The translations under genes and the position numbers were made by a program. From assembly GCA_028717685.1 (NCBI GenBank), contig JAQUNI010000002.1, positions 7,903-71,902 on the forward strand: a stretch of DNA of 64,000 bases. The letters run 5' to 3'. Below the pieces are notes generated by a model that worked only from the letters and a program-made list of their open reading frames with translations, searched no databases and was not told the DNA's origin. Numbering within the stretch: the first letter of the stretch is position 1; every line of letters begins with the position of its first letter. The stretch comes from Patescibacteria group bacterium. GTDB lineage: Bacteria > Patescibacteriota > JAQUNI01. Shown here in pieces: positions 3,335-48,976 of the stretch.

Positions 3335-3336
3335 GA

Positions 3337-3781
3337 AATGAAAAATGAAAAACTAAAAATGAAAAACGACAAAGAAAAATTTAAAAAGGAATTTAAAGCC
3401 AGAATCTACCACTTTATTTTGCGTTTAGTAAAATTTGTAGATAGCTTGCAAAAAGATAGAAGCTCGCAGGTTTTTGCTAATCAAATGCTTCGAAGCGGCA
3501 CAAGTATTGGCGCTAACTATATTGAAGCCCAAGCTTCAAGCTCTAAAAAAGATTTTGCTAATTTTTTCCACCATTCTTTAAAATCAGCCAACGAAACGAA
3601 GTTTTGGTTAGCATTATGCCGTGATTTAAACAAAGGAGAAAAAAGCCAAGCCGAATCTTTACTGCAAGAGCTTACAGAAATTGCCAATATTTTAGGCTCA
3701 AGCCTGCTTACCTTAAAAGGTAAGAAATGATTTTTTAATTTTAGATTGTGGTTTTTCATTTTTCATTTTCAGTTTTTCATT
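3337..3781. mobile_element. IVS-like cassette: a ~30-bp inverted-repeat pair (aaatgaaaaatgaaaaactaaaaatgaaaaac / gtttttcatttttcattttcagtttttcatt) enclosing the four-helix-bundle gene
   Basis: The left and right arms are reverse complements of each other. The same arm family occurs without cargo at 16395-16559, as a solo arm at 14998-15030, and at the nrdD disruption point (62012-62030). Confidence 0.55.
3338..3730 (+). CDS. Four-helix bundle protein (TIGR02436 / 23S rRNA intervening-sequence protein family)
   Basis: 130-aa ORF with the hallmark motif RSGTSIGANYIEAQASSSKKDFANF...ETKFWL. It lies inside an inverted-repeat cassette (3337-3368 / 3751-3781). The true start may be the internal Met at 3359, because the first codons fall in the left repeat arm. 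Confidence 0.8.
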   Translation: MKNEKLKMKNDKEKFKKEFKARIYHFILRLVKFVDSLQKDRSSQVFANQMLRSGTSIGANYIEAQASSSKKDFANFFHHSLKSANETKFWLALCRDLNKGEKSQAESLLQELTEIANILGSSLLTLKGKK

Positions 3782-8611: not shown

Positions 8612-11600
8612 ATGCTTTTTAAAAAGGCTCCTCCCAAGCCCAATTTTCCAGAGATGGAAAGAAAAATCTTGGAATATTGGGAGAAAAATAAAATTTTTGA
8701 AAAAAGTTTAAAGAAACCCTTATCCAAAGGTGATTTTGTGTTTTATGAAGGACCGCCAACAGCGAATGGTAAACCCGGCGTGCATCACGTTGAAGCGCGG
8801 GCGTTTAAAGATTTATTTCCTCGTTATAAGACTATGCAAGGTTACAGGGTGGAACGCAAAGCGGGCTGGGATACGCACGGCCTGCCTGTGGAATTGGAGG
8901 TGGAGAAGAGTTTAGGTTTTTCGGGAAAACGCGACATTGAAAAATATGGCATAGAAAAATTCAACAAAAAATGCGCGGCGTCAGTTTGGAAATATAAAGA
9001 AGAGTGGGAAAAATTAACCAAGCGAATGGGATATTGGGTTGATTTGGAACATCCTTATATTACTTGCTCTAATGAATACATTGAGTCGGTTTGGTTTATT
9101 TTGAAGAAGATTTGGGAGAAAGGGCTTTTGTATCAAGGTCACAAAGTCGTGCCTTATTGCCCAAGATGCGGAACAGCCTTGTCTTCGCACGAAGTAGCGC
9201 AGGGGTATAAAAAGGTAAAGGAGGCAAGTGTGTATGTTAAATTAAAAGTTAAAAGTCAAAAGTTAAAAGTCAAAAGTAAAAATCAAAATTCAGAAATAGG
9301 AGAAACCCCCCTAACCCCCCTTGTCAGGGGGGAAGGCAAGAATGTCTATTTTTTAGCGTGGACGACGACGCCGTGGACATTGCCGGGGAATGTGGCGCTG
9401 GCGCTGGGAGCGGAGATTGGTTATGTTTTAGTGAAGTCTGGAATTAAATTAAAAATTAAAAATGAAAAATTAAAAACCACAATCAAAAATGAAAAAATTA
9501 AAGTTGCTTCGCAACTTTTGAAGGAAAAAGAGGGATATTTAGTTTTAGCTAAAAAGAGGTTGGAAGTTTTGGATGGGGAATATGAGATTATTCAAGAATT
9601 CAAAGGCAAGGATTTAGCAGGGATTGAATATGAGCCCTTGTATCCGGTTTTTTCGGGAGTGGAAAATAGAAACGAAGAAACCCCCCCAACCCCCCTTGTC
9701 AGGGGGGCGAAGAAAGAAGAAAAAGAAAAAGCTTACCATACAGTTTTAGCCGATTTTGTGACTACGGAAGAGGGGACGGGGATTGTGCATACAGCGGTGA
9801 TGTATGGCGAGGATGATTACGCGTTAGGGGAAAAATTGGGTTTGCCGATGATGCATACGGTGGATTTGCAGGGGAGATTTAAACTCAAATCTCAAAACTC
9901 AAATCTCAAAACTACAACTCAAATTTCAAAATTTAAAGTTGCTTCGCAACTTTTAGATAAAATAGAAGGAAAATTTGTTAAGGACGCGGAGAAGGATATT
10001 GTTGAGGATTTGCGAAAAAGGGATTTGCTTTATAAATCTGAATTATACGAGCATGATTATCCCTTTTGCTGGCGGTGCAAAACACCTTTGCTTTACTACG
10101 CGAAAAAAAGCTGGTTTATCGCGATGAGTAAGCTGCGTGATAAATTAGTGGAAAATAATGAGAAGATAAACTGGATTCCGAAATATTTAAAAACTGGCCG
10201 TTTTGGCAAGTGGATTGCCGAGGCAAAGGAGTGGGCAGTATCGAGGGAGAGGTACTGGGGCACTCCGATGCCGATATGGATTTGCAAAAAATGCGGAGAG
10301 GTGAAGGTGATTGGGAGTAGGGAAGAATTTTATTCCGTCATTGCGAGCGGAGCGAAGCAATCGCCAGCAAGCAAAACCGAAGCTAGAAATGTCGGAACAT
10401 TGTCTTTACTAAATGGAGATTGCCGCGGTCGTCCCTCGACAGGCTCGGGATTCCCTCGCAATGACGACATTCTAATGGATTTACATCGTCCATATATTGA
10501 TGAGATTGTTCTTAAATGTAAGTGTGGTGGAGAAATGCGGCGGGTGCCGGAAGTTTTGGATTGCTGGTTTGATTCGGGGGCGATGCCATTCAGCCAAAAC
10601 CATTGGCCGTTTACTGACAGTTCCTCCCCTCTAAAGGGGAGGGCAGGAGAGGTTGTGAAGGGAGAGCCGAAACCCCCCCTAATCCCCCTTGTCAGGGGGG
10701 AGGGAAATCCTCCGAAATTATTTCCTGCCGATTTTATTTGTGAAGCCGTGGATCAAACAAGGGGCTGGTTTTACACGCTCCTCGCGATTTCCACACTTTT
10801 GGATTTTGGAGCGCCCTATAAAAATGTAATTTCCTTAGGCCACGTTTTGGATAAAAATGGCCAAAAAATGAGCAAATCTAGGGGAAATATTGTAGAGCCT
10901 TTCAAGGCTTTGGACGAATTTTCCGCTGATTCTATCCGCTGGTTTTTTTACACCGTAAATCGGCCGCAGGAATCTAAGAATTTTGACCCCGCGATCTTGC
11001 GCGACATTGTCTCGCGGTTTATTTTGACTTTATGGAATAGTTATTCTTTCTTTTTAACCTATGCGAGTATTGATCAACCCAAGCTTTCTAATGTCTTTGC
11101 GAGCGGAGCCCAAAAAGGCGGAGCGAAGCAATCTCTTCGCAATGACATTGCTGGAAACATTCTTGATCAATGGATTCTTTCTCGTTTAGCTGAATTGAAC
11201 AATAATATTGTTCAGTATCTCGATCGTTATGATGTCTTAAAAGCCGCGAAAGAAATTGAACAATTTGTTGATGATTTATCAAACTGGTATATCAGGCGGT
11301 CGCGCCGTAGATTTTGGAAAAGTGAAAATGATCAAGATAAAAACCAAGGATACAATACATTGCATTCTGTTTTAGTCTTACTATGCGAAATGTTGGCGCC
11401 TTTTATGCCTTTCCTAACGGAAAATATTTATCGTAATTTAACGGGCAAGGAGTCGGTCCATTTAGCCAAATTTCCCAAGATTTCATCCGAAGGAACTGAC
11501 CAAGGTATTTTGGAGCAGATGGATATTACGCGTAAGATTGTAACTTTAGGGCTGAATTTACGGGCGCAAGCAAAGATAAAGGTTCGGCAGCCGTTAGATA

Positions 11601-12064
11601 AGTTAAAAGTTAAAAGTGAAAAGTTAAAAGTTATAACTCAAAACTCAAAACTTTTAAATTTAATGAGAGAAGAATTGAATATTAAAGAGATAAAGGTTGT
11701 ATCGGAAATCAAGGAAGCGGGTGATTTGCTCGTGGCTGAAGATGGGGATTTGAAAGTGGCTTTGAATATAAAGATTACCCCAGAATTGAAGCGGGAAGGT
11801 ATTGTCCGCGATTTAGTGCGGGTGGTTCAAGAAATGAGAAAGAAAGCGGGTTTAGAGGTTTCGGATCGGATTGAGCTTTCCTTATACAGTGAAGATGGAG
11901 AGATTCAAAAAGCAATTCAAGAATGGCAGGATTATATTCAAAAAGAAACTTTGGCAGAAAGGTTAGGAGAGATTTGGGGTGGGATAGATGAGGTAGAGAA
12001 AGTGAAAATAGAAGGCAAAGAGGTGCAGATTAGTATAAGAAATTGTTCTAATTGTTCTAATTAA
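8612..12064 (+). CDS. ileS: Isoleucine--tRNA ligase (type 2 IleRS) carrying several in-frame repeat insertions
   Basis: Class I aaRS signatures PPTANGKPGVHHV (HIGH-like), WTTTPWTLPGNVALA, KMSKSRGN. N-terminus NFPEMERKILEYWEKNKIFEKS. Low-complexity and palindromic insertions are described under findings. Confidence 0.92.
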   Translation: MLFKKAPPKPNFPEMERKILEYWEKNKIFEKSLKKPLSKGDFVFYEGPPTANGKPGVHHVEARAFKDLFPRYKTMQGYRVERKAGWDTHGLPVELEVEKSLGFSGKRDIEKYGIEKFNKKCAASVWKYKEEWEKLTKRMGYWVDLEHPYITCSNEYIESVWFILKKIWEKGLLYQGHKVVPYCPRCGTALSSHEVAQGYKKVKEASVYVKLKVKSQKLKVKSKNQNSEIGETPLTPLVRGEGKNVYFLAWTTTPWTLPGNVALALGAEIGYVLVKSGIKLKIKNEKLKTTIKNEKIKVASQLLKEKEGYLVLAKKRLEVLDGEYEIIQEFKGKDLAGIEYEPLYPVFSGVENRNEETPPTPLVRGAKKEEKEKAYHTVLADFVTTEEGTGIVHTAVMYGEDDYALGEKLGLPMMHTVDLQGRFKLKSQNSNLKTTTQISKFKVASQLLDKIEGKFVKDAEKDIVEDLRKRDLLYKSELYEHDYPFCWRCKTPLLYYAKKSWFIAMSKLRDKLVENNEKINWIPKYLKTGRFGKWIAEAKEWAVSRERYWGTPMPIWICKKCGEVKVIGSREEFYSVIASGAKQSPASKTEARNVGTLSLLNGDCRGRPSTGSGFPRNDDILMDLHRPYIDEIVLKCKCGGEMRRVPEVLDCWFDSGAMPFSQNHWPFTDSSSPLKGRAGEVVKGEPKPPLIPLVRGEGNPPKLFPADFICEAVDQTRGWFYTLLAISTLLDFGAPYKNVISLGHVLDKNGQKMSKSRGNIVEPFKALDEFSADSIRWFFYTVNRPQESKNFDPAILRDIVSRFILTLWNSYSFFLTYASIDQPKLSNVFASGAQKGGAKQSLRNDIAGNILDQWILSRLAELNNNIVQYLDRYDVLKAAKEIEQFVDDLSNWYIRRSRRRFWKSENDQDKNQGYNTLHSVLVLLCEMLAPFMPFLTENIYRNLTGKESVHLAKFPKISSEGTDQGILEQMDITRKIVTLGLNLRAQAKIKVRQPLDKLKVKSEKLKVITQNSKLLNLMREELNIKEIKVVSEIKEAGDLLVAEDGDLKVALNIKITPELKREGIVRDLVRVVQEMRKKAGLEVSDRIELSLYSEDGEIQKAIQEWQDYIQKETLAERLGEIWGGIDEVEKVKIEGKEVQISIRNCSNCSN
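10337..10465. repeat. 129-bp (43-codon) palindromic-ended element inserted in frame in ileS (gtcattgcgag ... ctcgcaatgac termini)
   Basis: 11-bp terminal inverted repeats. The length is divisible by 3 and it starts on a codon boundary. A shorter relative occurs at 11097-11146 in ileS and a related sequence at 23040-23150 in the tatD-leuS spacer. Confidence 0.55.
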
Positions 12065-13020: not shown

Positions 13021-13095
13021 ATTGCCGGGGTATGATTATTCTGAAAGAACGGGGTCTAATCCATGGTATAATTGTGATTTTTATAATGCAGGGGT

Positions 13096-16394: not shown

Positions 16395-16559
16395 AAAAAT
16401 GAAAAGTGAAAAATGAAAAACCATAATCTAAAATTAAAAAATTTTAAAGAATACTTTTTTTATCAATTTTTACTGCTTTTAGATGGTAAGAACCTGGGGT
16501 TTAAATTCTTTTTAGATTTTTCATTGTGATTTTTCATTTTTCACTTTCAGTTTTTCATT
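16395..16559. repeat. Cargo-less copy of the four-helix-bundle cassette inverted repeats (MITE-like, 165 bp)
   Basis: Left arm aaaaatgaaaagtgaaaaatgaaaaacc, right arm gatttttcattgtgatttttcatttttcactttcagtttttcatt. No ORF between them. Confidence 0.55.
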
Positions 16560-23213: not shown

Positions 23214-25709
23214 ATGTATAATCACAAAGAAATAGAAAAAAAATGGCAAAAGAAATGGGAAAAAGATAGACTTTACAAATCCCAGGATTTTAGCGATAAA
23301 CCCAAATTTTATTGCTTGGATATGTTCCCCTATCCTTCGGGCGCGGGTCTGCACGTGGGGCACCCCGAGGGTTACACGGCAACAGACATTGTTTCCCGCT
23401 ACAAGCGGATGAATGGCTATAATGTCCTGCATCCGATGGGTTGGGACGCTTTCGGGTTACCCGCGGAAAATTACGCGATTAAGACTAAGGTTCACCCCGA
23501 TAAAAGCACGCACGAGAATATTAATCGTTTTCGGGAACAGATTCAGTCCTTAGGTTTATCTTACGACTGGGAACGGGAAGTGGACACTTCCAGCCCGGAA
23601 TATTACAAATGGACACAGTGGTTTTTCCTCTTTTTGTATAAAAACGGCTGGGCTTATCGCAAAAAAGCGCCGGTGAATTGGTGTCCTTCCTGCCAGACTG
23701 TGCTTGCGAATGAACAGGTGATTGATGGCGCGTGCGACCGTTGCAAAACTAAAGTTATTCAAAAAGAACTTAAACAGTGGTTTTTCAAGATTACCGATTT
23801 TGCCGAAGAATTAATCGCTGGTTTGGATAAAATTGACTGGCCAGAATCAACCAAAATTATGCAGAGGCATTGGATTGGAAAGAGCGAGGGGGCCGAAATA
23901 AAATTTTCAATTTTCAATTTTCAATTTTCAATTAGTGTTTTTACGACAAGACCGGATACAATTTTTGGGGCTACTTATTTGGTTTTGGCACCGGAACATA
24001 AAATTGTAGAAAAGTTAAAAGATAAAATTGAAAATTATGCAGAAATAGAGAAATATGTTTTGGCATCTAAGAAAAAAACGGAAAGGGAAAGATTAGCGCA
24101 AGAAAAGGAGAAGACAGGCGTGGAATTGAAAGGTATCAAAGCTATAAATCCGGCTAATAATCAAGAAATCCCCATTTTTATTGCAGATTATGTGCTCAAG
24201 GGTTATGGCACGGGTGCGATTATGGCGGTGCCAAAACATGATTTACGTGATTATTTATTTGCTCAAAAGTATAATTTACCAATAGTTGAGGTGATAAAAC
24301 TATGTGAAATTAAAAATGAAAAATTAAAAATTAAAAATCACAATTTAAAATTTAAAAATAATAGAGAGGAAGAATTAGTTTATGAAGATGAGGGGGTATT
24401 AGTTAACTCTGGCGAATTTAACGGGTTGGATTCGGAAGCAGCGAGGGAAAAAATCACCGAATGGCTAGCTACAAAGGGATTAGCCAAGAAAAAAATAAAT
24501 TACAAACTCCGTGATTGGCTGATTTCGCGGCAAAGATATTGGGGCGCGCCGATTCCTATATTTTATTGTGAAAAATGCGGCGAGGTGCCAGTATCAGAAG
24601 AAGATTTGCCGGTGTTATTGCCTCGCGATGTAGATTTTATGCCGCACGGAGAATCGCCGCTTACGCGCTCTAAGGAATTTCATAAAGTCAAATGCCCAAA
24701 ATGCGGGGGGAAGGCGCGGCGCGAATCAGATACTATGGATACCTTCGTCTGTTCTTCCTGGTATTTTTTTCGGTATTGCGATCCCAAAAATGCAGAAGAA
24801 TTTGCTTCCAAGAAACTTTTAAAATATTGGATGCCCGTTGATTTATATGTGGGCGGCGCGGAACATACGGTTCTGCATTTGCTATACTCCCGCTTTTTTA
24901 CCAAAGCCCTGCATAAAAAGGGCTTAATCAATTTTGACGAGCCTTTCTTAAAACTCCGTCACCAAGGAATGATTTTAGCCGAAGACGGTCGCAAGATGAG
25001 CAAGAGTTTAGGCAATGTGATTAATCCAGATGAGGTGGTAGAAAAGTATGGCGCCGACACAATGCGGATGTATGAGATGTTTATGGGACCGTTTGAAGAT
25101 TCTATCGCTTGGAACACCAAAGGGGTGATTGGAGTGCGAAGGTTTTTGGAAAAAGTGTGGAAGATAAAGTCAGGAATCAGGAACCAGGAATCAGGAACCA
25201 GGAATAATAAGCTAGATGGCTTGGTTCATAGAATAATTAAAAAGGTGGGTGTTGATATTGAGAACTTTAAGTTTAATACCGCGGTGGCGAGTTTAATGAT
25301 TTTGGTGAACCATATGGAAAGGGAAGAATTTATCCCCCAGCATTTATTTGAATCATTTTTAAAAATTTTATCGCCTTTCGCGCCACATTTGGCGGAAGAA
25401 TTATGGACACAGCTTGGATACAAAGTCGGAGATGCCGAAGGTAGTGGAACTGCTGACGAAGGAAGTAAGAGTATTTTTGTTGAAAAATGGCCAGAATATG
25501 ATTTGCGATTAGTGCAAGAGGACGAAGTGGACTTAGTGATTCAGGTGAATGGCAAGGTGCGGGCGGTCGTTCAGGTAAAGACGGATATTTCCGAAAGCGA
25601 AGCTAAAAAAATCGCTCTGAAACAGGAAAAAATTAAGAAATGGATAGGCGGCAAGAAAGTCCGCAAATTTATTTTCGTGCCAGGCAGGCTGATTAATATT
25701 GTTATTTAA
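23214..25709 (+). CDS. leuS: Leucine--tRNA ligase (bacterial type) with in-frame AT-repeat insertions
   Basis: FPYPSGAGLHVGHPEGYTATDIVSRY (HIGH), KMSKSLGNVINP, and a CxxC...CxxC zinc knuckle. Confidence 0.92.
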   Translation: MYNHKEIEKKWQKKWEKDRLYKSQDFSDKPKFYCLDMFPYPSGAGLHVGHPEGYTATDIVSRYKRMNGYNVLHPMGWDAFGLPAENYAIKTKVHPDKSTHENINRFREQIQSLGLSYDWEREVDTSSPEYYKWTQWFFLFLYKNGWAYRKKAPVNWCPSCQTVLANEQVIDGACDRCKTKVIQKELKQWFFKITDFAEELIAGLDKIDWPESTKIMQRHWIGKSEGAEIKFSIFNFQFSISVFTTRPDTIFGATYLVLAPEHKIVEKLKDKIENYAEIEKYVLASKKKTERERLAQEKEKTGVELKGIKAINPANNQEIPIFIADYVLKGYGTGAIMAVPKHDLRDYLFAQKYNLPIVEVIKLCEIKNEKLKIKNHNLKFKNNREEELVYEDEGVLVNSGEFNGLDSEAAREKITEWLATKGLAKKKINYKLRDWLISRQRYWGAPIPIFYCEKCGEVPVSEEDLPVLLPRDVDFMPHGESPLTRSKEFHKVKCPKCGGKARRESDTMDTFVCSSWYFFRYCDPKNAEEFASKKLLKYWMPVDLYVGGAEHTVLHLLYSRFFTKALHKKGLINFDEPFLKLRHQGMILAEDGRKMSKSLGNVINPDEVVEKYGADTMRMYEMFMGPFEDSIAWNTKGVIGVRRFLEKVWKIKSGIRNQESGTRNNKLDGLVHRIIKKVGVDIENFKFNTAVASLMILVNHMEREEFIPQHLFESFLKILSPFAPHLAEELWTQLGYKVGDAEGSGTADEGSKSIFVEKWPEYDLRLVQEDEVDLVIQVNGKVRAVVQVKTDISESEAKKIALKQEKIKKWIGGKKVRKFIFVPGRLINIVI

Positions 25710-35636: not shown

Positions 35637-36079
35637 TAATACTACCTCCTGTGTGATAATTTGAAAACAAGGAGATTACTTCATTTCATTTTTAGCCTAT
35701 TTCTTTTTGATGATGAAGTCAAGAAAATAATTGTGGATAAGTAGAGACGTAAGATTTTTCCGTCTCTATATTTATAAAAAATAAAAAAGCTGCTTTTTAA
35801 GCAGTAAAACGATTCTTTAAAGAATGCATTTTTCTCCCCTTAAGATTTGTTAACGTTTTGAAATAAATTTCTCCGCTACCTTTCTTTTGCGCTTTAAACA
35901 GGGGACATCAGGACGATAATAAATCCAAGAAAGTAATTTAATAGATTCTTTTTTGGCAAATTTTAATTCCCACATATTGGTTGTCTGGTATGGTTTTCTT
36001 GTTTTTCTTTCCCATGTGTGGCCTTTGATGACGAGCAGGCAATTTTGGTTTGGGTATAATGCGGCGCAGAAAGTCAATG

Positions 36080-36165: not shown

Positions 36166-36483
36166 TGAAGATATTATTTTTTTACTAAGAAACATTTTAA
36201 ATATAAGAAAAATTGGGGTTTTTGTCAATTTTGTTTTTTTATGATAAAATAATAAAAGATTGACCCCGTTAGAAACATACCCCGCCCCGTTAGAAAATTT
36301 TTTCTAACGGGGCCCGCAGCTAGGCTAGCGGTTAGTGTAGAAATATAGATGACTCGTGCGGTTGGGTTTCATGCCCCGCACGAGTTTCTAACAGGGTTGA
36401 CTTCTCCTCTCGTAAAGGAAGATGAGAGAGGTTATTTGTTAATATTTAAACCCTCCCTTTAGAGGCGAGGGACTAAAATAGAA

Positions 36484-42063: not shown

Positions 42064-42201
42064 TAATTTTTAATTTCTAATTTTCAATTTTTATTAAATT
42101 TCTAATGTTTTAATTTTTAAACTTCCTTATTGAAAAATGAGTGTTTGGAAATTGATCCATTGAAAATTTAATAGAAATTAGAAATTGAAAATTTGAAATT
42201 T
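42064..42201. repeat. MITE-like inverted-repeat element (ttctaattttcaattt family) between topA and dprA
   Basis: Arms 42064-42107 and 42162-42201 are reverse complements. Confidence 0.5.
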
Positions 42202-43294: not shown

Positions 43295-43335
43295 TTTTAT
43301 GTTTTGTAGAGACGTTGCATTGCAACGTCTCTACT

Positions 43336-44539: not shown

Positions 44540-47500
44540 TTAACTAAAGTGCAACTTTTTTAATATTTTCAAACTCTCTTTTAATTCTTTTACCCACTCT
44601 TTACCTAAATCCTCAAAATCAATCTTCACTTTGTTTTCGCCAATGATCCAACGGGGATTATGTTTTAAAAGTTCGCCTATTTTGTCCCAGTCCATTTCTT
44701 CGGCAAAGTCTAAGATGATGCGTTGTCTTGGGCGGCCATCAATTCCCCAAACCTTGATTGTATCAATAGCTTTTATTCTCGCTGTCCGGGCGAGGATTTT
44801 TATTCCCAGAATCTGGAAGAGATTTTTCACTTCTTCGGGCAAGGGACCATACGCTTTTTCCATTTTATTTTTAAGAAGCGTTAGGTCGGCAAAAGCATTA
44901 ATGCCGCTTAGTTGGTGGTAGTAGGAAAGCCGTTTTTTCTCGGCAGGAATGAAGCGTTGCGGCAAGCGCGCCGGAAGAGGTAGGTCAATAGAGACTTCCA
45001 GAATGGGTTCAGGAACCTTGCCGGTCTTGAATTCTTGGATTGCTTGGCTAAGAAGCTTGGTGTATAAATACAACCCGATAGAATTGACATTGCCTGATTG
45101 CTCACGACCCAAGATATTGCCCGACCCTCGGATTTCCAGATCGCGCATCGCGATATTGAATCCTGAGCCGAGTTCCTGCATGGAAAGGAGAGCCTCTAAT
45201 CTTTTGCTCGCGGCTGCTGGAAGCTTTTCTTGGTGATAGAAAAAATAGGCGTAAGCTTGGCGTGTTCCTCGGCCAATGCGGCCGCGGATTTGATAGAGCT
45301 GGGAGAGGCCGAATTGCGGCGCGTTATCCACAATGAGCGTATTCACGTTCGGGAGGTCCAATCCGTTTTCAATAATGGTGGTGGCGATCAGAATCTGGAT
45401 TTTTCCTTCATCAAATTGTTGCATTACGCGGGTTAAATCGCGTTCGTTCATCTGACCGTGGGCGACGTCAATTTTGGCTTCGGGAATAAGTTTCTGAATT
45501 TTTTTCGCGAAAGGCAGAATTGTTTCCACTTTATTATAAAGATAATACACTTGTCCTTCTCTTTCAAGTTCGCGGCGAATCGCTTTTTGGATGAGTTTGT
45601 TTTTAGCAAGATGCACATAGGTCTTGATTGCTTTGCGGCCGGCGGGCGCGGTTTGAATGCTGCTGATATCGCGGAGGCCGGAAAGAGTAAAGTTCAGGGT
45701 GCGTGGGATAGGCGTCGCGGAAAGAGTAAGAATATCAAGGTTAGGCCGCAGCGATTTTAATTTTTCCTTGTGGCGCACGCCAAAACGTTGTTCCTCGTCA
45801 ATAATGATCAAGCCCAGGTTAAAAAAATAAACATCAGGGGAGAGGAGACGATGGGTGCCGATAACAATGTCTATTTTTCCTCGTTTTAAATCTTTTAAGG
45901 TTTGTTTTTGACGCTTTTTAGATTGGAAGCGCGACAGGAGACCAATCCTCACATCTAATGATCGCAGCCTTTTTTTAAAAGTATCAAAGTGCTGCTGGGC
46001 GAGAATGGTGGTAGGCGCGAGGAGCGCGATCTGCTTTTTGTTTTCACACGCCTTAAAGGCGGCGCGAATGGCGACTTCGGTTTTGCCGAAACCCACATCG
46101 CCGCAAATTAAACGGTCCATTGGAAGAGCACTTTCCATATCAGTCTTTACATCGCGAATTGCTTTCTCCTGATCTTGTGTCTCGGAGTAGGGGAAGGACG
46201 CTTCCAGCGCGTTTTGGCGGGGAGTGTCAGGCATAAAAATAAACCCTTTTTCAGTTTGGCGCGCTGCTTGAATTTTTAAAAGTTCCGCGGCCATTTTTTT
46301 AGCGTCAACCTGAACTTGTTTTTTGATTTGGTGCCAAATGCCGCCATGTAAGCGGTGGATGACGGGATTTTCCCGCCCGATATAGCGCGTGATTTTATCC
46401 GCCTGATCAATAGGCAGGAAAAGCTTATCGCTATAAGCGTATTCTAAACAAAAATATTCTCTCACGAGATGGTCAATCTCTTTTTGGACCATTCCGACAA
46501 ATTTGCCGATGCCGTGGTCAATATGCACGATATACATTCCGGGCGTGAGGGCGTTCAGAGGTTCAATATCCATTTGAAAACGGCGCTCGCGGCGCCTTTG
46601 TCTTCGGAAACCGAAGATTTCCGTGTCCGTGAAGACAATAATTTTTTCTTTTTTATTTTGGAAACCAGCGGAAAGCGAAAAGGGGGTTATTACTGCGGAG
46701 ACAGGTTCAAAACTTGTCTCCATAAGAGGCAATTTTTGGCTTGCGATAAAGACTTGATAATTTTTTTTCCTGAATTGCTGGAGAGCGCTGTTTAATGTTT
46801 GAAGATTACCCAAAGCTAGGGGAGGATTCTGAAAACTGAATCGGACTACATTTTCCGGCTCTGCACAAGGGAAGGATTCAAAAACAATCAAAGGAAATTT
46901 TTTCAGCCTTTTTTTCAATTCGGGTTCGGGTTCGTCCAGAATGATGGTAGTTTGGGAAGGAAGCCAGTCTAAAAGAGTGCCTTGGGGATTTTTGATAGTT
47001 AAGGGGGGAATTGTTATATTGTTATATTGTTGTATTGCCTGACCTTGGTTAATTGCTTTCAAGCTTTCTATTTGATTGCCAAATAATTCTAGGCGGACAG
47101 GGTGCGGTTGAAAGGGAGGAAAGATATCCATAATTCCACCCCGCACAGCAAAGGTGCCTGGAGAATGAGCGGCTTTTTCTTTTTGATAATGGGCGGATAA
47201 AAGAAAACCGATTAGTTTGGGCAAGTTGAGAGTCTGCCCTTCCGAGAGCCGCAAGCTTTTGGATTCTAATTCTTTTGGCGAGGGAAATTTTTGAGCGAGA
47301 ATTTCCGTTTGCGCTAAAACCAATATTGGTTCGTTATCCTTAAGGCGGGAGAAGATTGGATAATTTTTTATTAAAACATCAGCGTTTGATTCCAGAATTG
47401 CGGAGACAGGTTTAAAGCCTGTCTCTACTGCATTCAGATTTTTTTGCCAAAATTGGATTTGGGTAAGCCAGATTTTCGGATTTTTAGCGCATAGCAAAGA

Positions 47501-47602
47501 AGCCCCTTTTCGCATAAGGGGGGAGGTAGCCAAGACATAAGGCTTAGCCGTTTGCGGCACGCCAGTCCAATATTGAATTTTGGTCAGCGGTTCTGTTGAC
47601 AA
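44540..47602 (-). CDS. mfd: Transcription-repair coupling factor Mfd
   Basis: Superfamily 2 helicase motifs GDVGFGKTEVA, DEEQRFGV, TATPIPRTL, QLYQIRGRIGR. N-terminal UvrB-homology and C-terminal TRCF domains. Confidence 0.9.
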   Translation of the reverse strand: MSTEPLTKIQYWTGVPQTAKPYVLATSPLMRKGASLLCAKNPKIWLTQIQFWQKNLNAVETGFKPVSAILESNADVLIKNYPIFSRLKDNEPILVLAQTEILAQKFPSPKELESKSLRLSEGQTLNLPKLIGFLLSAHYQKEKAAHSPGTFAVRGGIMDIFPPFQPHPVRLELFGNQIESLKAINQGQAIQQYNNITIPPLTIKNPQGTLLDWLPSQTTIILDEPEPELKKRLKKFPLIVFESFPCAEPENVVRFSFQNPPLALGNLQTLNSALQQFRKKNYQVFIASQKLPLMETSFEPVSAVITPFSLSAGFQNKKEKIIVFTDTEIFGFRRQRRRERRFQMDIEPLNALTPGMYIVHIDHGIGKFVGMVQKEIDHLVREYFCLEYAYSDKLFLPIDQADKITRYIGRENPVIHRLHGGIWHQIKKQVQVDAKKMAAELLKIQAARQTEKGFIFMPDTPRQNALEASFPYSETQDQEKAIRDVKTDMESALPMDRLICGDVGFGKTEVAIRAAFKACENKKQIALLAPTTILAQQHFDTFKKRLRSLDVRIGLLSRFQSKKRQKQTLKDLKRGKIDIVIGTHRLLSPDVYFFNLGLIIIDEEQRFGVRHKEKLKSLRPNLDILTLSATPIPRTLNFTLSGLRDISSIQTAPAGRKAIKTYVHLAKNKLIQKAIRRELEREGQVYYLYNKVETILPFAKKIQKLIPEAKIDVAHGQMNERDLTRVMQQFDEGKIQILIATTIIENGLDLPNVNTLIVDNAPQFGLSQLYQIRGRIGRGTRQAYAYFFYHQEKLPAAASKRLEALLSMQELGSGFNIAMRDLEIRGSGNILGREQSGNVNSIGLYLYTKLLSQAIQEFKTGKVPEPILEVSIDLPLPARLPQRFIPAEKKRLSYYHQLSGINAFADLTLLKNKMEKAYGPLPEEVKNLFQILGIKILARTARIKAIDTIKVWGIDGRPRQRIILDFAEEMDWDKIGELLKHNPRWIIGENKVKIDFEDLGKEWVKELKESLKILKKLHFS

Positions 47603-48810: not shown

Positions 48811-48976
48811 AAATTTTCAATTTTCAATTTCTAATTTCTATTAAATTTCTAGTGAATCAATTTTAAAACTTCATACGGAATAAATTTTATTGTACTTGGC
48901 TTGATTAAAGATTTGAGGTTTAAAAATTAAAAGAATTGAAAATTCAATAAAAATTGAAAATTAGAAATTAGAAATT
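48811..48976. repeat. MITE-like inverted-repeat element (ttttcaatttctaatttc family) between pth and the LCP gene
   Basis: Arms 48811-48852 and 48929-48976. Confidence 0.5.

Follow-up and report, generated by a model that had tools for sequence, protein, structure and literature searches.

Repetitive extragenic palindromes (REPs) tagged with GTAG or CGTC form super-families spread over eight phyla, among them Cyanobacteria, Chloroflexi and the PVC group (Di Nocera, De Gregorio & Rocco 2013, BMC Genomics 14:522, PMC3733652). REP-associated tyrosine transposases (RAYTs) have been proposed as the transposases of the GTAG class (PMC3733652), and the wider REP/RAYT system has been approached through REPINs (Bertels & Rainey 2011, PMC3116915) and through the structure of the E. 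coli TnpA-REP protein (4ER8). Many intragenic REPs lie in uvrABCD, recBCD, polA, dnaE2 and tRNA-synthetase genes, at times twice per open reading frame (ORF), and the GTAG often provides a TAG stop (PMC3733652). Neither Patescibacteria nor mfd appears in the 2013 survey ("mfd" has 0 occurrences in PMC3733652). Our literature search for RAYTs together with Patescibacteria returned nothing relevant, and literature searches by sequence string returned primer tables only. Here we describe a 64,000-nt stretch of contig JAQUNI010000002.1 from a Patescibacteria group bacterium (assembly GCA_028717685.1, positions 7,903 to 71,902 of the forward strand; "the window" below) in which mfd, the gene for transcription-repair coupling factor, is translated through two copies of a short hairpin. 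With a probability that we put at roughly 0.85, these hairpins are old and partly worn copies of a miniature REP-type element that was mobilised by a cognate RAYT, entered the gene before its clade split and has been tolerated in loops. They are selfish-DNA insertions of a kind described before, GTAG-type REPs in repair genes (Di Nocera 2013), and what is new is the host group.

44540..47602, minus strand: mfd (transcription-repair coupling factor), 1020 aa, TTG start, carrying both elements
47400..47428 (29-nt register; core hairpin 47403-47425), strand unassigned: REP copy B, coding strand GTAGAGACAGGCTTTAAACCTGTCTCCGC, read V-ETGFKPVS-A, aa 59-68
46695..46723 (29-nt register; core hairpin 46698-46720), strand unassigned: REP copy A, coding strand ATGGAGACAAGTTTTGAACCTGTCTCCGC, read M-ETSFEPVS-A, aa 294-303
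43306..43334, strand unassigned: canonical unit of a different subtype of the family (GTAGAGACGTTGCATTGCAACGTCTCTAC, perfect palindrome of 29 nt), in the spacer between a 114-aa ORF and dprA
35741..35769, strand unassigned: degenerate family member GTAGAGACGtaagatttttcCGTCTCTAt, non-coding, near tRNA-Leu

These copies belong to a perfect palindrome of 29 nt, GTAGAGAC-(6 nt)-N-(6 nt')-GTCTCTAC, which combines a constant outer stem with an inner stem that covaries. GTAG REPs are stem-loops of 20-40 nt that open with GTAG, and the present unit resembles them in size and in other respects. In both cases a fixed part is combined with complementary stem changes within families, copies are dispersed, apparently for the most part between genes, and a RAYT-like gene has its cognate repeats beside it. 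Some copies, a minority, lie in frame in genes, notably those for nucleotide-excision repair and tRNA synthetases and sometimes two per ORF, and the GTAG can serve as a TAG stop, as it does here at the mfd end of a close relative. Unlike those of the GTAG REPs, the RAYT-like proteins found here are distant and contain, in frame behind the HUH motif, a REP of their own.

Other palindromic or hairpin elements are less similar. Rickettsia palindromic elements (RPEs) are reportedly selfish palindromic DNA that lies in frame in the protein genes of Rickettsia; RPE-1 measures about 100-150 bp, and RPEs are confined to Rickettsia. Both kinds of palindrome are read through in frame as an extra peptide in essential proteins, where they are tolerated in loops. 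That read-through is all they have in common, the present family having a 29-nt unit, a Patescibacteria host, a range over many phyla and an unrelated sequence. RPE-4 and RPE-6, which are short, fall into the CGTC class and not into GTAG (PMC3733652). Cyanobacteria offer a further comparison: Nostoc-type genomes are rich in heptamer tandem repeats, of which the window genome is also full, and Nostocales host the GTAGAGAC family most often among the genome matches listed. The small dispersed repeats of heterocystous cyanobacteria are said to be mobile units of about 21-27 nt, some of them hairpins. In the IS200/IS605 Y1 (HUH) group, the transposase lies between two different imperfect hairpins in elements of about 0.7-2 kb. 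Recognition of a hairpin in single-stranded DNA (ssDNA) by an HUH/Tyr enzyme and insertion without a target-site duplication would be shared with that group, and a clean insertion at 43306 is consistent with it, whereas the mobile unit here is the hairpin alone. Miniature inverted-repeat transposable elements, which measure 70-300 bp and have terminal inverted repeats and a target-site duplication, do not match a 29-nt unit that left no duplication at 43306. Nor do the hairpins behave as intrinsic terminators or Rfam RNA families: a terminator scan calls none of the element hairpins, there is no T-run at the mfd hairpins, and Rfam scans found only tRNA-Leu in the window and nothing in the viral loci that carry the element.

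Two hairpins read in frame in mfd

The identity of the host gene is clear. The protein has UvrB_inter (117-201), CarD_TRCF_RID (352-408), DEAD, Helicase_C and TRCF matches in Pfam, and its ORF matches solved Mfd structures at E ~1e-185 in a PDB search, so that the UvrB-homology module, the RNA polymerase (RNAP)-interaction domain, the SF2 translocase and the TRCF domain are all present. Sequence and ORF agree with the preliminary description in placing two hairpins here and in reading them in frame as its two peptides. Copy A occupies 46694-46720 (TGCGGAGACAGGTTCAAAACTTGTCTC) and copy B 47399-47425 (TGCGGAGACAGGTTTAAAGCCTGTCTC). They are identical at 24 of 27 nt and lie on one strand and in one frame, with 705 nt (235 codons) between them. 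When a degenerate 23-mer describing both was searched, its only two sites in the 64 kb were those in mfd (0.00 expected from 100 shuffles). Continued by one residue beyond the 29-nt register, the translations are M-ETSFEPVSA-V for copy A (aa 294-304) and V-ETGFKPVSA-I for copy B (aa 59-69). The codons are ATG GAG ACA AGT TTT GAA CCT GTC TCC GCA in copy A and GTA GAG ACA GGC TTT AAA CCT GTC TCC GCA in copy B. All seven residues common to the two copies (7/7) use identical codons, and the three positions that differ are confined to two codons, both non-synonymous. Codon identity of this kind points to relatedness at the DNA level and not to a conserved protein motif.

The hairpin that had been described as a 25-bp unit is real, but the true unit is the 29-nt palindrome with GTAG and CTAC ends, of which the window copies are decayed versions. 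The canonical form of the mfd type is GTAGAGACAGGTTTNAAACCTGTCTCTAC, that is, GTAGAGAC-AGGTTT-N-AAACCT-GTCTCTAC. In copy B the stem is 8 bp and the tail has changed from CTAC to CCGC. In copy A the head has changed from GTAG to ATGG, the stem has 1 mismatch and the tail is again CCGC. As ssDNA, copies A and B fold with -6.9 and -7.5 kcal/mol, respectively (z ~-4.8). Perfect units fold more strongly, with -12.2 kcal/mol at site B and -11.3 kcal/mol at site A in the mfd type of a related species (locus L003), and canonical copies, with a 13-bp stem and a 3-nt loop, reach -12.2 to -13.5 kcal/mol.

A 29-nt palindrome family and its RAYT-like genes

The hairpin belongs to a dispersed family of elements, as the preliminary description had supposed, with at least 128 sites in a genome scan, in non-coding DNA and in unrelated genes. 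Among the matches listed, 81 have 6/6 inner pairs and 30 have 5/6, and their hosts are Nostocales, Chloroflexota, Bacteroidota, Rhodothermales, Patescibacteria (including an Uhrbacteria contig), Omnitrophota, Brocadiales and Acidobacteriota. The exact mfd-type unit also occurs in a Kuenenia genome, and the 29-mer at 43306 is identical in Nostoc, Chloroflexota, Uhrbacteria and Saprospiraceae genomes. Viral contigs searched with GTAGAGAC-N13-GTCTCTAC, in which the inner 13 nt are free, gave 23 sites; the inner stretch is fully palindromic in 13 and has 5/6 pairs in 5. A control with shuffled arms gave 11 sites with only 0-3 inner pairs, which excludes inner palindromy as an artefact of selecting the matches. 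Across 37 distinct members, the inner five pairs include all four Watson-Crick types and 88 double changes, a count as high in 0 of 500 shuffles and descriptive in kind, the set having been pre-selected for pairing.

The extent of the unit can be read from metagenomes, where the mfd-type unit was found in more than 120 contigs. A scan with the 23-nt core GAGACAGGNTTNNAACCTGTCTC alone, which demanded neither GTA nor TAC, found GTA before the core in 105 of 118 copies and TAC after it in 102 of 118 among the matches listed; beyond these, the flanks are otherwise unrelated. The recurrence of GTA and TAC between unrelated flanks sets the unit at 29 nt. The GTAG end is thus present in 105 of those 118 copies and, in the window, on the coding strand of copy B, with ATGG in its place in copy A. 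Copies can be locally dense, with 4 in 4 kb (L061), 3 in 11.5 kb (L025) and 4 in the 64-kb window.

Those four were found in two ways. The pattern GAGAC-N(3-33)-GTCTC occurs at 4 sites in the window against 0.18 expected, with N = 13 each time, and a covariance model of the family (R1), run over the whole window with filters off, returned exactly these four, two in mfd and two intergenic, with nothing else at E<0.1. The intergenic pair bears out the expectation that the hairpin would occur beyond mfd. Although R1 was built without the window mfd copies, it recovers both (copy B 17.5 bits, E 1.4e-3; copy A 15.2 bits, E 9e-3). The copy at 43306-43334 scores 47.5 bits (E 4.5e-14). The copy at 35741-35769 (19.1 bits, E 3.8e-4) retains the outer stem, has lost the inner stem and folds with -6.2 kcal/mol. 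At 43306 the element is missing from the orthologous junction in both close relatives (L002 and L003), and deleting exactly 29 nt restores the relatives' length; the copy is a clean, lineage-specific 29-nt insertion, and no target-site duplication was found at it. A second difference between relatives is seen at the extreme end of mfd in L002, where a third, slightly degenerate mfd-type copy (GTAGAAACAGGTTTAAAAATCTGTCTCTAC, 13051-13080) supplies the TAG stop through its GTAG and is missing in the window and in L003. That copies are present or absent between close relatives at both places is evidence that the family is mobile.

Some copies are translated. Among the metagenome matches listed, 24 of 117 (~20%) fall within ORFs of 200 aa or more and ~80% lie outside such ORFs. 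Of the coding copies listed, 23 of 24 share the mfd reading phase, which yields VETG(L/F)KPVST, and none (0/24) uses the alternative open phase (RDRF.TCLY); that this phase goes unused implies selection on the inserted peptide. By Pfam, the coding copies lie in UvrA (twice), RecJ (between DHH and DHHA1), PheT (twice), ValS, an Eco57I-type restriction-modification enzyme, ComEC and NadC. The two UvrA copies (L277:3683-6604 and L246:2-2149) are at equivalent places, just past UvrA_inter. The UvrA of L277 also has a second, degenerate copy farther along (..MEKGLKPFST..). Beside its VETGLKPVST, the ValS of L164:2-2035 contains ..HPELVSGSEKN.. and ..RHAELVSASIPS.., and these extra segments look like read-through of another palindromic repeat family.

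A candidate for the enzyme that moves the family was found at other loci, where pairs of elements 340-415 nt apart pointed to a small gene. Relatives of this gene occur in ten element-bearing loci (tblastn), one of which (L083) is from a Patescibacteria genome (Uhrbacteria), and in each of the ten loci the matching REP subtype both adjoins the gene and lies inside it. Those aligned (alignment A3) are the following, with four more:

L052:733-1404: RAYT-like gene
L097:4878-5528: RAYT-like gene
L128:4682-5212: RAYT-like gene
L083:256-786: RAYT-like gene
L169:2-430: RAYT-like gene

The proteins share YFxTxCT and MPNHxH (HUH) motifs, and three full-length ones also have WQxxFYDxIIR...YIxNNP. Their sole NCBIfam match is NF047646, REP-associated tyrosine transposase (E 8e-10, 9e-8 and 1e-4). 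A PDB search with single sequences gave no match; with a profile of the RAYT-like proteins, the best match is 4ER8, the E. coli TnpA-REP, at E 0.0036 over the HUH and WQxRF..IR..YIxxNP motifs. At the level of the family, cognate repeats thus flank a RAYT-like gene with HUH and Tyr motifs. In every RAYT-like gene found, the internal REP lies in frame between the HUH (MPNHxH) strand, which it follows directly, and the Tyr half, and is read VETxxxxVST. An apparent RAYT carrying its own REP in frame is an architecture that we did not find described in the literature examined.

Age of the insertions and competing explanations

A full-length search with Mfd yielded a series of homologs: P0016 is identical (the window Mfd with another start), P0017 is 89% identical, P0018 is 77% identical, and P0019-P0025 and P0001 are 57-65% identical. 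A word-index search with the N-terminal part returned a single close homolog, and an exhaustive search of representatives added little. A look-up of the exact window protein found no record. L002 (134-kb contig, ERZ27249422) is the locus of the 89%-identical relative and L003-L007 are five contigs of the P0018 species, L003 belonging to GCA_964459815.1. Among the orthologs compared, ETG[FL][EK]PVS stands at both sites in the window, P0017 and P0018 only. None of the Mfd orthologs with 65% identity or less has the motif, their loops of similar length at both sites holding unrelated sequence, and it is also missing from the solved Mfds. In L003-L007, site B is a perfect 14+1+14 palindrome (GTAGAGACAGGTTTGAAACCTGTCTCTAC), and in L003 site A is a 13+1+13 palindrome (TAGAGACAGGTTTAAAACCTGTCTCTA). 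The window copies are worn versions of the 29-nt unit kept in the P0018 species, and the insertions are old and clade-specific, being common to relatives of 89% and 77% protein identity. No further mfd gene was found by tblastn among 282 fetched loci.

These observations can be assembled into a sequence of events. A cognate RAYT, an HUH/tyrosine transposase, would act on the hairpin in ssDNA and so mobilise the 29-nt family; we infer this mechanism of transposition. Both copies would already have been in mfd when the window organism parted from its two closest known relatives. They occupy surface loops of poor conservation, one within domain D1a and one in the linker that precedes the RNAP-interaction domain. 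There they are translated in the sole phase that yields a loop-friendly peptide, VETG(L/F)KPVST, and they have since drifted at the rate of the remaining gene. Because a 29-nt insertion shifts the frame, coding copies need a compensating +1 or -2, and their having arisen with such a change may account for untidy boundaries.

Several points weigh against this account. No clean empty site was found in the outgroup Mfds compared, and relative to outgroups site A is longer by a net +3 to +8 aa and site B by ~0 to +5 aa, neither reaching +10; between anchors at site A the clade has 15 residues and the outgroups 12-13, or 7 (P0001, P0020 and P0021). The core of the earlier proposal, a hairpin element read in frame twice in the N-terminal part of Mfd, is nonetheless upheld by the lack of the motif in orthologs of 65% identity or less, by the hundreds of copies elsewhere and by the covariance model. 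A bare 29-nt insertion also shifts the frame, so further events must be assumed. Both copies in the window and in L002 end in TCC GCA, whereas TCT AC. or AT. stands in that place in both L003 copies and in the canonical unit; this amounts to four parallel changes on one branch and suggests sequence exchange between the copies. Such a concerted change in both copies is not explained by independent neutral decay. The GTAG here pairs with a 3' CTAC, which makes the unit identical on both strands, and in the 2013 definition of GTAG REPs it is unpaired. Finally, tblastn found no RAYT-like gene in the 64-kb window or in the relatives' loci, and the RAYT-like proteins found elsewhere score below the curated NCBIfam cut-off and have no Pfam match.

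The concerted change also bears on the proposal that the hairpins are gene-specific cis-regulatory structures of mfd, either RNA hairpins or operators of a dimeric DNA-binding protein (a roadblock or autoregulation). Such a role would suit two copies in the same orientation in one gene, at the same two positions in three species, with both L003 copies still perfect palindromes. Excess conservation of the hairpins was tested, and it is absent. Between the window and L003, nucleotide identity is 48/60 (0.80) in the elements and 0.76 in the rest of mfd (p = 0.29), and at third positions it is 14/20 and 0.57, respectively (p = 0.17); a conserved functional palindrome was dropped on this ground. 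The stems in the window are degraded (-7 against -12 kcal/mol), across many phyla the identical element occurs both in numerous unrelated genes and between genes, and the hairpins have neither a T-run or terminator context nor an Rfam match. Regulation is for these reasons improbable. The AlphaFold model of Mfd (17-sequence alignment, mean pLDDT 70.8) has a confident N-terminal fold, and pLDDT falls below 50 at residues 59-62 and 292-299, within predicted coil at 56-66 and 288-313, which are the places of both elements. Both copies thus lie in predicted low-confidence loops and are probably tolerated passengers and not regulators; we infer that they are neutral for Mfd function. With no excess conservation, a location in loops and no terminator or Rfam context, passengers in loops are the most economical description.

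It is very unlikely that ETG(F/L)(K/E)PVS is instead an internal protein repeat, a structural or functional peptide of this Mfd clade with the palindrome as its by-product. The peptide does stand at both sites in three species, and the phase bias of the listed metagenome coding copies (23/24) indicates selection on what is encoded. Against this, the shared residues have identical codons and the differences are non-synonymous, the sequence is a perfect DNA palindrome, most copies of the family lie outside long ORFs, the motif is lacking in the more distant and the solved Mfds, and both segments are modelled as low-confidence coil. Just as little credence attaches to the idea that the direct copies are recombination sites, at which gene conversion or exchange by a RAYT or recombinase would delete or invert the 235-codon UvrB-homology, UvrA-recruiting module and make Mfd switchable. 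Their spacing is an exact multiple of three in the same phase, and the derived substitutions common to both copies suggest exchange between them; L003-L007, L002 and the window nevertheless all have the full arrangement, with no deleted or inverted variant, no shortened Mfd occurs among the closest matches, and the copies are only 24/27 identical and differ in their central bases. As for chance resemblance of two short palindromes, nothing beyond the small size of the motif speaks for it, and the shuffles, the constant N = 13 and the recovery of both copies by a covariance model built without them make its probability negligible.

Tolerated REP copies remain the preferred explanation, and a broader statement about the family can be attached to it only tentatively. 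The GTAGAGAC...GTCTCTAC palindromes may be one horizontally spreading REP/RAYT lineage, near base-for-base identical in at least 7 bacterial phyla and in phage-like contigs. In this lineage the in-frame REP between the HUH and Tyr halves of the RAYT would possibly be autoregulatory, and coding insertions would be filtered to a single reading phase and enriched in genes for nucleotide-excision repair, DNA processing and aminoacyl-tRNA synthetases, now including mfd. Sequence would pass between the two mfd copies, and they could bring about an in-frame loss of the 235-codon module that recruits UvrA. That all of these parts hold jointly is unlikely.

Some other identities for the motif were considered and set aside. 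The resemblance of AGAGACAG to the Tn5/Nextera mosaic end was rejected, since other members have GAGACG.., copies lie in frame and they diverge between independent assemblies. BsmAI/BsmBI-type (GTCTC) sites, a LexA-like box and DNA uptake sequences were dropped, as inner complementarity and the RAYT link favour a hairpin element; for uptake sequences the element density is in addition far too low.

Other repeats of the window and the meaning of the mfd copies

The preliminary description had listed a tandem repeat in mfd with the hairpins and had called the phenomenon the same as in ileS, with a different element family.

47010..47037, minus strand: 8-nt tandem ATTGTTAT x3.5, TRF score 49, read ..QQYNNITIP..

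The tandem is present and read through, but it is not an insertion, because close orthologs are equal in length there, with related sequence (CAACAATTTAGCAATTTAACAATT in L001 and GAACAATTGAACAATATTATTATC in L003). It is evidently ordinary low-complexity coding sequence outside the element system, one of ~100 short TRF matches in the window. The in-frame segments of ileS are likewise real and a separate phenomenon. This gene (8612-12064, 1150 aa) has four of them, at 9244-9292, 9446-9502, 9881-9931 and 11600-11657, with the peptides KLKVKSQKLKVKS.., KLKIKNEKLKTTIKNEKIK, KLKSQNSNLKTTTQISK and KLKVKSEKLKVITQNSK. They are built of heptamer-repeat units that also fill intergenic spacers, an element type unlike the mfd palindromes. 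Nearly every spacer of the window has tandem heptamers of the AAAATTN or AATTTTC type, with inverted blocks around genes (for example 3336-3391, 16395-16559, 24307-24359, 42064-42200 and 48812-48976), and these recall the heptamer repeats of Nostoc-type cyanobacteria. Just upstream of parA-parB, 36260-36400 holds several copies of CCCCGTTAGAAA / TTTCTAACGGGG, one pair of which is a perfect 14-bp inverted repeat (36284-36313); these repeats could be a partition or origin-related site. The LeuRS of the organism is 100% identical to an NCBI entry labelled Patescibacteria. Elsewhere, a LeuRS of Falkowbacteria (Patescibacteria; P0362, 974 aa) has PF01797, the Y1/IS200-type transposase family, among its Pfam matches, which suggests a transposase-derived segment fused in frame into an aminoacyl-tRNA synthetase.

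The mfd case itself is modest: an odd feature of an essential repair gene is explained as tolerated selfish DNA and not as a new regulatory device. It extends the habit of REPs of settling in nucleotide-excision-repair and tRNA-synthetase genes to mfd and to the reduced genomes of Patescibacteria. The regularities at the level of the family are somewhat more interesting, and these by-products may be the more useful result: a sharply defined 29-nt family, a near-absolute phase bias and RAYT-like genes that carry their own REP. The peptide signature VETxxxxVST lets annotators recognise such insertions, and together they form a compact system in which to ask how mini-elements move, why repair genes are often hit and how proteins absorb 10-residue inserts.

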